DNA of 64,000 bases from Escherichia coli. Its GTDB lineage: Bacteria; Pseudomonadota; Gammaproteobacteria; Enterobacterales; Enterobacteriaceae. The first letter of the stretch is position 1. Every line of letters starts with the position of its first letter. Shown in pieces: positions 32,870 to 33,160 of this stretch. The stretch lies in assembly GCF_001677475.2 (NCBI RefSeq), contig NZ_CP015229.1, one strand, 5' to 3'. The notes under the pieces were generated by a model. The model saw only the letters and a list, made by a program, of their open reading frames with translations. It did not search any database and had not been told where the DNA came from. Both the position numbers and the translations under genes were made by a program.

Positions 32870-33160
32870 ATGTATAATTTTAAAGATAAAATAGAAGATT
32901 ACACAGAGCGGGAATTCATTGAGTTGCTTGGCGAGTTTACAAATCCAACCGGGGATAACGCTCAATTAAAAGGGGAAGAGCTTGACAAATATTGGGATGA
33001 TCTAGAAGAACATCTTACCAGAATTACACAACATCCGTTGATGAGCGATCTTATCTACTATCCTGCAAAGAAGGGAGATGATGAACCTGAAAACATCCTG
33101 AAAATCGTCAAAGAATGGCGGCGTTCGCAAGGATTGCCTTTGTTCAAAGATTCAGAATGA
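32870..33160 (+). CDS. Second Im9-like DNase immunity protein (orphan immunity)
   Basis: 96-aa intact ORF directly after the toxin fragment; DYTEREF and QHPLMSDLIYYP motifs; last 24 residues almost identical to the first immunity gene, central region divergent. Confidence 0.75.
   Translation: MYNFKDKIEDYTEREFIELLGEFTNPTGDNAQLKGEELDKYWDDLEEHLTRITQHPLMSDLIYYPAKKGDDEPENILKIVKEWRRSQGLPLFKDSE

Follow-up and report, generated by a model that had tools for sequence, protein, structure and literature searches.

The 3' block shared by immunity genes of the Escherichia coli usp island as a probable crossover joint of toxin/immunity modules

The usp island of Escherichia coli carries a chromosomal toxin gene, usp, followed by a variable array of small immunity genes. 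We analyzed one copy of this island in a 64,000-nucleotide (nt) stretch of E. coli DNA (NCBI RefSeq assembly GCF_001677475.2, contig NZ_CP015229.1), hereafter the window, in which two immunity genes, gene 1 directly behind usp and gene 2 at the end of the array, share a closely similar block over their last 24 codons. The segment under study is the 3' end of the island's second, orphan immunity gene and encodes helix IV and the C-terminal tail of its product. The shared block is very probably the outcome of purifying selection on the encoded peptide together with its role as a crossover joint of interchangeable toxin/immunity modules, a role confined to its first 41 nt. The evidence for this explanation comes from a base-level comparison of the two genes, from the combinations of gene bodies and gene tails encountered among E. 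coli strains, and from related arrays in other genera.

Gene bodies, gene tails and array position

An earlier note on this DNA, drawn up from the sequence alone, had described the two immunity genes as having near-identical 3' ends with few synonymous changes and a diverged center. Its positions and peptides were exact, both proteins ending in PENILKIVKEWRRSQGLPLFKDS followed by K or E, with N-terminal and central parts as quoted. Over the last 24 codons (32388-32459 and 33086-33157), 23 of the 24 residues are the same, and the 72 coding nt of the block differ at 10 positions, nine of them silent and the remaining one in the K/E codon; the stop codons are TAA and TGA. The claim of near-identity holds for the first 41 nt, where 40 of 41 nt match as two exact 20-nt runs, but fails for the remaining 31 coding nt, which differ at nine positions, in 9 of 11 codons, with eight of these differences silent. 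Within the block, 1 of 13 codons differs in the first part vs 9 of 11 in the second (Fisher p = 5e-4), and the 41-mer, with 1 of its 41 nt differing, is set apart from the gene body, where 77 of 207 nt differ (p = 1.5e-6).

The diverged center was confirmed, as codon-level alignment gives a DNA identity of 33-60% in the gene centers and rules out uniform divergence along the gene. Codons 1-52 are 60% identical, the lowest values, 33-47%, being those of codons 16-34; identity then rises to 73% over codons 53-69 and reaches 90-97% at the start of the block. For the last 24 codons of the alignment (gene 1 codons 70-93, a register one codon upstream of that used in the earlier note) the nonsynonymous divergence (dN) amounts to 0.018, compared with 0.385 in codons 1-69, while the share of silent sites that differ is 0.64 in the block and 0.68 in the rest of the gene.

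The window was compared with 15 further E. coli loci (designated L with a number), a sample that comprises 41 immunity genes of three body types: A (MFKEKLQDYTE...), B (MYNFKDKIEDYTE...) and C (M(R/H)DLK.KIYFYTE...), each nearly invariant across strains. All E. coli immunity genes compared share the 41-mer CCTGAAAACATCCTGAAAAT(T/C)GTCAAAGAATGGCGGCGTTC. Module order varies, with eight array orders (C; C-B; A-B; A-C; A-B-C; C-A-B; C-B-C; A-B-C-B) and four body/tail combinations for types B and C. The sequence downstream of the 41-mer exists in two forms only and follows position: an "internal" tail, continued by the linker, is found in 25 of 25 non-terminal genes and a "terminal" tail, continued by the flank on the pdhR side, in 15 of 15 last genes. 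Bodies of type B carry internal tails in eight genes and terminal tails in seven, and those of type C are divided seven and seven. When B-internal and B-terminal genes are aligned, 255 of the first 257 nt match, up to GGCGGCGTTC, after which identity falls to roughly 60%; conversely, C-terminal and B-terminal genes are about 60% identical up to CCTGAAAAC and 100% identical from there through the flank. Because the bodies differ by ~40% and the tails by ~35%, the occurrence of B and C bodies with either tail is not explained by mutation and needs exchange between body and tail, and the four combinations therefore place crossovers inside the 41-nt stretch. Accordingly, the window's genes differ at nine positions in their last 31 coding nt because one is internal and the other terminal, not because one is type A and the other type B. 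The earlier suggestion that the block could act as an anchor for homologous recombination is thus upheld by this survey of alleles over 16 loci, in which the tail tracks array position and all four B/C combinations occur, and by a like pattern in Salmonella salamae; its extent has to be narrowed to the first 41 nt from the full 75 nt.

The combinations recur in the wider population. Among 5,426 complete E. coli genomes, matches of at least 99% identity were obtained in 793 genomes for A-internal, 842 for B-internal, 495 for B-terminal, 407 for C-internal and 319 for C-terminal, counts that come from chimeric 201-nt body/tail queries and are restricted to the bands of at least 99% identity, in which the sampled rows were all single pieces; the search sometimes joins matches of adjacent modules, which blurs such counts and makes those at a coverage of at least 80% unreliable.

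Rare chimeric E. coli immunity proteins (P0004, P0009, P0012, P0013, P0018) combine the N-terminal part of one type with helix III of another. The kinds present in the protein database are C/B, A/B joined at LKG, A/B and C/B joined at ITQHP, and C with a KQSR extension. Such proteins could be natural specificity hybrids. Judging from these sequences, crossovers take place at other short conserved patches (LKG, ITQHP) as well, with only those in the 3' block, which are protein-neutral, being common.

Modules of the array and related arrays in other genera

The island is built from usp and tandem modules of ~695 nt, in each of which a toxin 3' fragment (the last ~250 nt) precedes an immunity gene and a hairpin-bearing linker (Table 1). 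In the window, the toxin end is duplicated (31915-32127 and 32606-32818, 88% identical over 213 nt). Gene 1 begins 3 nt past the usp stop codon, and gene 2 is preceded by a decayed usp 3' fragment, such that the second module has the makeup of an orphan module: a toxin 3' fragment without the rest of its gene, then an immunity gene that is intact and of another type (type B). Two lesions mark the fragment: a TGA stop in frame at 32696-32698, where the closest relative, L001, reads TTA, and the loss of 1 nt near 32823, through which the end of the HNH motif is gone. Tandem duplication in place, of a simple kind, was rejected, as the last module is without the tail and linker common to all other modules. 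Across strains, usp is 97-100% identical to about nt 1530 and then 50-57% identical at nt 1561-1650; this variable region aligns with the immunity-binding exosite of colicins, and the orphan fragments begin exactly there. These alignments delimit a variable cassette, extending from the toxin exosite to immunity helix III and bracketed by an anchor in usp and the anchor in the immunity gene.

Table 1. Coordinates of the usp island features in the window
Feature	Position	Strand	Basis
usp (uropathogenic-specific protein; Hcp-ET3-4), Hcp (TssD) + S-type pyocin domain + colicin/pyocin HNH DNase, 593 aa	30394..32175	+	Open reading frame (ORF), Pfam
Left (5') anchor in usp, 47-nt run identical to 32621-32667, codons WLEVSQDPELIAQFS	31930..31976	+	Exact run; toxin variable just downstream
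Immunity gene 1, body type A, 94 aa, directly 3' of usp, presumed cognate	32178..32462	+	ORF, size
Copy 1 of the 41-nt shared stretch (codons PENILKIVKEWRRS)	32388..32428	+	Exact-run comparison
Internal tail (last 34 nt of gene 1) and 155-nt linker with hairpin at 32489-32516	32429..32617	+	Same after every non-terminal E. coli gene
Decayed orphan copy of the final 83 usp codons	32618..32869	+	Aligns with 31927-32175
Immunity gene 2, body type B, 96 aa, orphan, array end	32870..33160	+	ORF, Pfam, size
Copy 2 of the 41-nt shared stretch, probable crossover zone where type-specific bodies are joined to position-specific tails	33086..33126	+	Loci comparison
Terminal tail, last 34 nt of the last immunity gene	33127..33160	+	Same in 15/15 terminal genes, any body type
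Hairpin past the terminal immunity gene (stem of 13 bp, -17 kcal/mol)	33184..33218	+	Fold z-score -3.2

Two observations bear on the history of the orphan fragments. In Nissle 1917 (array C-A-B), the fragment before the type A gene is intact, with 79 of 83 residues identical to the C-terminus of the window's usp, which fits a model in which an incoming module displaces the older toxin end while the immunity gene of that end is retained, as in the proposals for Vibrio type VI secretion system (T6SS) and rearrangement hotspot (Rhs) loci. The orphan fragment of the window has CAGGATCC (Gln-Asp-Pro), as in full usp, compared with CAGTATCC (Gln-Tyr-Pro) in the orphan fragments examined from other strains; this suggests a recent conversion of the orphan copy by usp in this strain, from which the 47-nt exact run could have resulted.

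Relatives of the array outside E. coli were reached by protein search and contig look-up. A search for the exact 41-mer in one genome per species gave zero matches, and a second scan, with peptide patterns from the immunity alignment, gave 384 pattern matches with no confirmed relative among them. In Salmonella salamae (L018, L019; 4281-6377), usp lies at the aroP-pdhR site and is followed by five tandem immunity genes at 360-nt spacing; the space between these genes holds only about 20 nt of usp 3' sequence, and one of the genes shares the specificity region of E. coli type C (EEIVNATSKDKSLKGKKLEKYLDTLVDHFIKIT). The arrays of the two Salmonella salamae strains are offset by one gene. One body is 260/260 identical between the strains up to GAATGGCGGCG, although internal in one and terminal in the other, and its terminal copy then carries the exact tail and flank of a different body in the first strain. 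This comparison places the Salmonella crossover zone in the same KIVKEWRR codons, within 23 nt.

The two E. coli tails have different affinities. The terminal tail with 70 downstream nt is 77-86% identical to Salmonella salamae tails vs 61-62% to the E. coli internal tail, and the internal tail and linker match, at 81-87% identity, the linkers of a Superficieibacter array of three genes situated at another chromosomal site. We infer that the E. coli island is probably a hybrid, with a Salmonella-like right end and internal modules of a second kind, joined in the 3' block of the immunity genes. The Superficieibacter array (L016, L017; 5588-10291) adjoins genes for an ABC transporter with a C39 peptidase domain, an HlyD-type adaptor and an outer-membrane factor, a neighborhood resembling a bacteriocin-export system. 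The peptide EWRRSQGLPLFKDS is kept across genera.

Hairpins are a further recurrent element. They lie 3' of every immunity gene in E. coli, Salmonella and Superficieibacter (L018:4932-5000; L016:3657-3730), and those after the immunity genes of Salmonella and Superficieibacter are homologous to the terminal hairpin of the window and show compensating base changes, the stems being CATCATCGC/GCGATGATG vs ATCATCAC/GTGATGAT. With fold energies of -17 to -23 kcal/mol (z -3.2 to -4.5) they are candidate terminators or mRNA stabilizers; the internal hairpin of this strain is weakened by base changes (-6.1 kcal/mol). Just past the terminal hairpin, at 33207-33235, GATGATTTTCGCTACGAGAAGG resembles the junction between Salmonella immunity genes, GATGATTTTCACTACAGGAGATAA, which consists of the last usp bases and a ribosome-binding site. 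By this resemblance, 33207-33235 may be a remnant of a further module.

Weighing the explanations for the shared block

In the favored explanation, two processes act on the block together. Purifying selection accounts for the conservation of the block as such, and recombination for the DNA-level identity of its first 41 nt, with protein conservation supplying the homology. Comparison of the two tails shows that ...KEWRRSQGLPLFKDS is held by protein-level purifying selection, as it stays unchanged although nearly all silent sites differ, and comparison of all the paralogs shows that the first 41 nt are kept DNA-identical and that crossovers there have joined bodies to ends specific for a position. 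The final 34 nt of gene 2 are the fixed, Salmonella-like right end of the island and not "type B" sequence, and those of gene 1 form part of a Superficieibacter-like internal linker. The usp anchor (31930-31976) and the 41-mer bracket a variable cassette, from the immunity-binding region of the toxin to immunity helices I-III. Exchange presumably proceeds by homologous recombination of the RecA type, be it as unequal crossing-over, as gene conversion or through replacement with imported DNA, and such events would expand, shrink and reshuffle the array; several immunity types are probably kept as protection against the usp variants of other strains.

A number of points weigh against this explanation or temper it. 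The 41-mer of the window is broken by an ATT/ATC difference into exact runs of 20 and 20 nt, although in L001 all 41 of 41 nt are identical. Efficient RecA recombination in E. coli takes roughly 20-30 bp of identity, so that the window's own copies of the 41-mer constitute a marginal substrate. The anchor may also be a by-product of protein conservation, not selected for recombination. The comparisons locate the exchange, but its timing, frequency and pathway lie beyond them. The 16 loci represent non-independent lineages, such that the Fisher values for the sample (tail vs position, p = 2.5e-11; tail vs type, p = 1) overstate the support, while the argument from the four combinations is unaffected; the blurring of the population counts, described above, belongs here too. 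Finally, protection by extra immunity proteins is disputed in the literature (Zaw 2013 vs Crnigoj 2014).

That purifying selection on helix IV and the C-terminal tail alone maintains the block, without any role in recombination, is an explanation we regard as quite unlikely. In its favor, EWR(R/K/S)SQGLPLFKDS is kept in Salmonella, Superficieibacter and Pseudocitrobacter homologs with body identities of only 48-65%, 8 of 11 codons differ silently between the two E. coli tails while the peptide stays the same, and helix IV is among the parts conserved family-wide (PMC4548480). Selection on the protein, however, leaves unexplained why silent sites are identical in the 41-mer (1 of 13 codons differing) and near saturation directly downstream (9 of 11), and as sole cause it is contradicted by the four body/tail combinations and the sharp breakpoints in two genera. 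Assembly artefacts are an unlikely source of these combinations, which come from complete genomes and number in the hundreds.

We give still less weight, and to a like degree, to two other explanations. One holds that the genes are a recent tandem duplicate whose center diverged fast under positive (diversifying) selection and whose 3' block has yet to diverge. The divergent immunity-binding region of the toxin and the divergent helix II, both flanked by conserved sequence, make up the classic picture of this process, and positive selection in the DNase exosite and helix II has been reported for colicins (PMC4548480). Against it, silent sites in the center are saturated (in codons 1-52, dN is 0.43 and the silent-site difference, pS, is 0.74), which means that the body types are old, and dN/dS is well below 1, although saturation makes this ratio uninformative about positive selection; moreover, each type is nearly invariant across strains, and the type C specificity region is present in a Salmonella salamae immunity gene. 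According to the other, the 41 nt are identical because this part of the gene contains a cis-acting RNA or DNA signal, for instance a processing site, the target of a regulatory RNA or an element for translational coupling. The core AAAATCGTCAA(A/G)GAATGGCGGCG is indeed nearly constant in Salmonella DNA and partly so in Superficieibacter, the Arg codon CGG included, CGG being a rare Arg codon in E. coli. No structure or motif was found in the stretch, in analyses not aimed directly at such a signal, the only stable hairpins lying past the stop codons; a promoter and terminator scan of 30000-33650 returned fewer sites than shuffled sequence and nothing convincing inside the array; and repeated recombination between paralogs accounts for the same DNA conservation.

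A stronger version of the crossover-joint explanation would regard the KIVKEWRR-coding stretch as a maintained "cassette joint," kept DNA-identical among paralogs and similar across genera by repeated exchange, which together with the toxin anchor would turn the usp array into a swap system. We consider this version doubtful. If it were true, matched toxin-exosite/immunity cassettes could move between lineages while the ends of the island stayed fixed, and a deletion could re-attach orphan toxin ends to usp and so switch a strain's weapon. A linked and equally doubtful possibility is that the invariant tail SQGLPLFKDS has a second function, for example in contact with a conserved part of Usp or with the secretion apparatus.

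The usp island, its immunity proteins and comparable systems

This locus is already known as the usp island of E. coli (PAIusp; usp = Hcp-ET3-4) and is described in the aroP-pdhR intergenic region as usp with orfU1-3, equivalent to imu1-3 (PMC7142922, PMC3685522, PMC3917654). In the window it lies between an AroP-like permease gene (28497-29870, minus strand) and a gene for a GntR-type PdhR (33583-34380, plus strand), and matching RefSeq loci are annotated aroP, tssD, immunity genes and pdhR, with aceE also in the flank (pdhR-aceE). The gene content likewise agrees with PAIusp, with one usp whose product has an Hcp-like N-terminus and an HNH DNase C-terminus, and two immunity genes in the window; altogether the island holds a 593-residue Hcp-Pyocin_S-HNH DNase with its immunity gene and, behind these, an orphan immunity gene preceded by a decayed repeat of the final 250 nt of the toxin. 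Pfam matches in usp are T6SS_HCP, Pyocin_S and Col-Pyo_DNase. The UTI89 locus is 98.7% identical to the window over the shared part, and usp is named tssD there in RefSeq. The T6SS literature refers to UTI89_C0121 as Hcp-ET3-4, according to a review (PMC6730261), and an identification of the toxin as Hcp-ET1 was dropped on the basis of that assignment. The region was found in 1,058 of the 5,426 complete E. coli genomes, chromosomal in every case.

Both immunity proteins are full-length members of PF01320, in agreement with the earlier assignment to the colicin DNase immunity family (gene 2, 32870-33157: E = 7.4e-28, model positions 1-82 of 82), and are 63% identical to each other (59 of 93 residues, type A vs type B). 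Their nearest solved relatives are ImAP41 (4uhp_B; E = 2e-19 to 2e-20) and Im7 (E ~1e-18), in alignments that span residues 3-94 of both proteins and thus the whole four-helix fold. The helix III hotspot reads SDLIYYP in gene 2 (TDLIYYP in Im7) and SDLIFYP in gene 1, where the first Tyr is replaced by Phe. On Im7, residues 65-87, with helix IV and the C-terminal tail, are the counterpart of the conserved block, and loop 1 and helix II that of the divergent center. The family profile is poorly conserved from mid-helix I to the end of helix II, which sets specificity, and conserved in helices III and IV (Joshi et al. 2015, PMC4548480); the divergent center on loop 1 and helix II agrees with this profile and with the earlier designation of the helix II region as the specificity determinant.

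Published sizes suggest that type A corresponds to OrfU2, B to OrfU3 and C to OrfU1. Gene 2 is probably Imu3 (the orfU3/Imu3 type) by size, mass and isoelectric point (pI), with 11.48 kDa and pI 4.6 computed for its product compared with 11.497 kDa and about 4.4 published for Imu3 (PMC3917654). Two usp C-terminal variants are on record, uspI and uspII, paired as uspI-orfU1 and uspII-orfU2 (PMC3685522). The pairing recurs in the present loci, in which a Nissle-type toxin C-terminus is always followed by type C and a window-type or L008-type C-terminus always by type A, and the published pairing lends indirect support to the notion of specificity switching by immunity divergence. A full-length usp with a type B-linked C-terminus was absent from the 14 full-length usp genes examined. 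As regards function, OrfU1 and UspI form a tight complex in which nuclease activity is lowered (Zaw 2013, PMC3685522), in contrast to a report in which no tight Usp-Imu complex was detected and DNA masking by Imu3 was proposed (Crnigoj 2014, PMC3917654); the review of Hcp-ET3-4 work states that all immunity copies help neutralize the DNase (PMC6730261).

Earlier publications already cover the locus, the protein family with its conservation profile, the variability of the gene order and the general concept of orphan toxin/immunity modules. PAIusp is described as one usp followed by two or three small immunity genes in variable orfU order, and four island subtypes are set by this order, which serves strain typing; the eight array orders and the third usp C-terminal variant described here go beyond that account. 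No mention of usp 3' fragments between the orfUs, of the 41-nt junction or of the position-linked tail was found in the usp literature surveyed, which does not extend to Nakano 2001, Kanamaru 2006 and Takahashi 2009, any of which may mention them. Hcp-ET3-4 (UTI89_C0121; Ma et al. 2017, Virulence 8:1189) is the same gene, with duplicated immunity genes downstream according to the review (PMC6730261), which contains nothing on recombination junctions. The precise junction and the position-linked tail are thus a small new detail on a known system and not a new kind of feature.

The colicin E2/E7/E8/E9 and pyocin S2/AP41 pairs belong to the same family and have the same conservation profile, with variable loop 1 and helix II. 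The usp toxin, however, is chromosomal and fused to Hcp, whereas colicins are plasmid-borne with receptor and translocation domains. The immunity protein of the window differs from Im7 in a loop 1 about 7 residues longer, the C-terminal tail is RRSQGLPLFKDS compared with AANGKPGFKQG in colicin Im proteins, and type A has F in place of the first hotspot Tyr of Im proteins. A parallel in organization is provided by the "sequential displacement" arrays of the Vibrio cholerae T6SS (Kirchberger 2017, PMC5361080) and by Rhs and contact-dependent inhibition (CDI) orphan modules, in which a full-length toxin gene precedes toxin 3' fragments that are each accompanied by an intact immunity gene. The Vibrio arrays likewise have strain-variable gene order and signs of horizontal transfer and homologous recombination (PMC5361080). 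In a Vibrio array most of the immunity genes are unrelated to one another, and the authors argue for a need of illegitimate recombination (PMC5361080); by contrast, the usp immunity genes are all paralogs of one family and have their own homology for crossovers. The usp array is a clean natural example of paralogous immunity genes that supply the homology for toxin/immunity reshuffling. Additionally, usp is in wide use as a uropathogenic E. coli marker and the island in strain typing, and modules of ~695 nt that recombine at two short conserved stretches explain the typing variation and predict further arrangements.

Several further observations on usp and its immunity genes were made in individual strains. 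The older literature gives Usp as 346 residues (PMC3685522), and the ORF with the Hcp domain has 593. The window's usp starts (30394-30399) with GTG AGC, compared with GTG GGC in 13 of 13 other E. coli loci compared. L008 and L009 (usp at 1501-3282; cf. window 31930-32175) carry a third variant of the usp C-terminus (SEINQLRISQGFTPFAPDEGHYIG...), with 52-68% DNA identity to the window's usp across gene nt 1561-1680; the array there is A-B-C-B, and the type A protein following this variant differs from that of the window at three residues only (Q7E, D12E, S30P). In the Nissle 1917 type (L003:3976-4269 and L006:3976-4269), the type A stop codon is changed from TAA to CAA, which adds KQSR and gives a protein of 97 residues, in agreement with the published length of OrfU2. 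In E. coli O25:H4 CU568-3 (L011, 5541-8156), an IS66-family element (ISCro1) is inserted in usp; the DNase end is thereby cut off and has its own annotation as an "HNH endonuclease." Finally, in E. coli Z22-2 (L014, 2788-3599), a copy of IS1 adjoins a deletion of aroP, usp and most of the array, and the remnant consists of the last 99 nt of the terminal immunity gene, with the terminal tail present.

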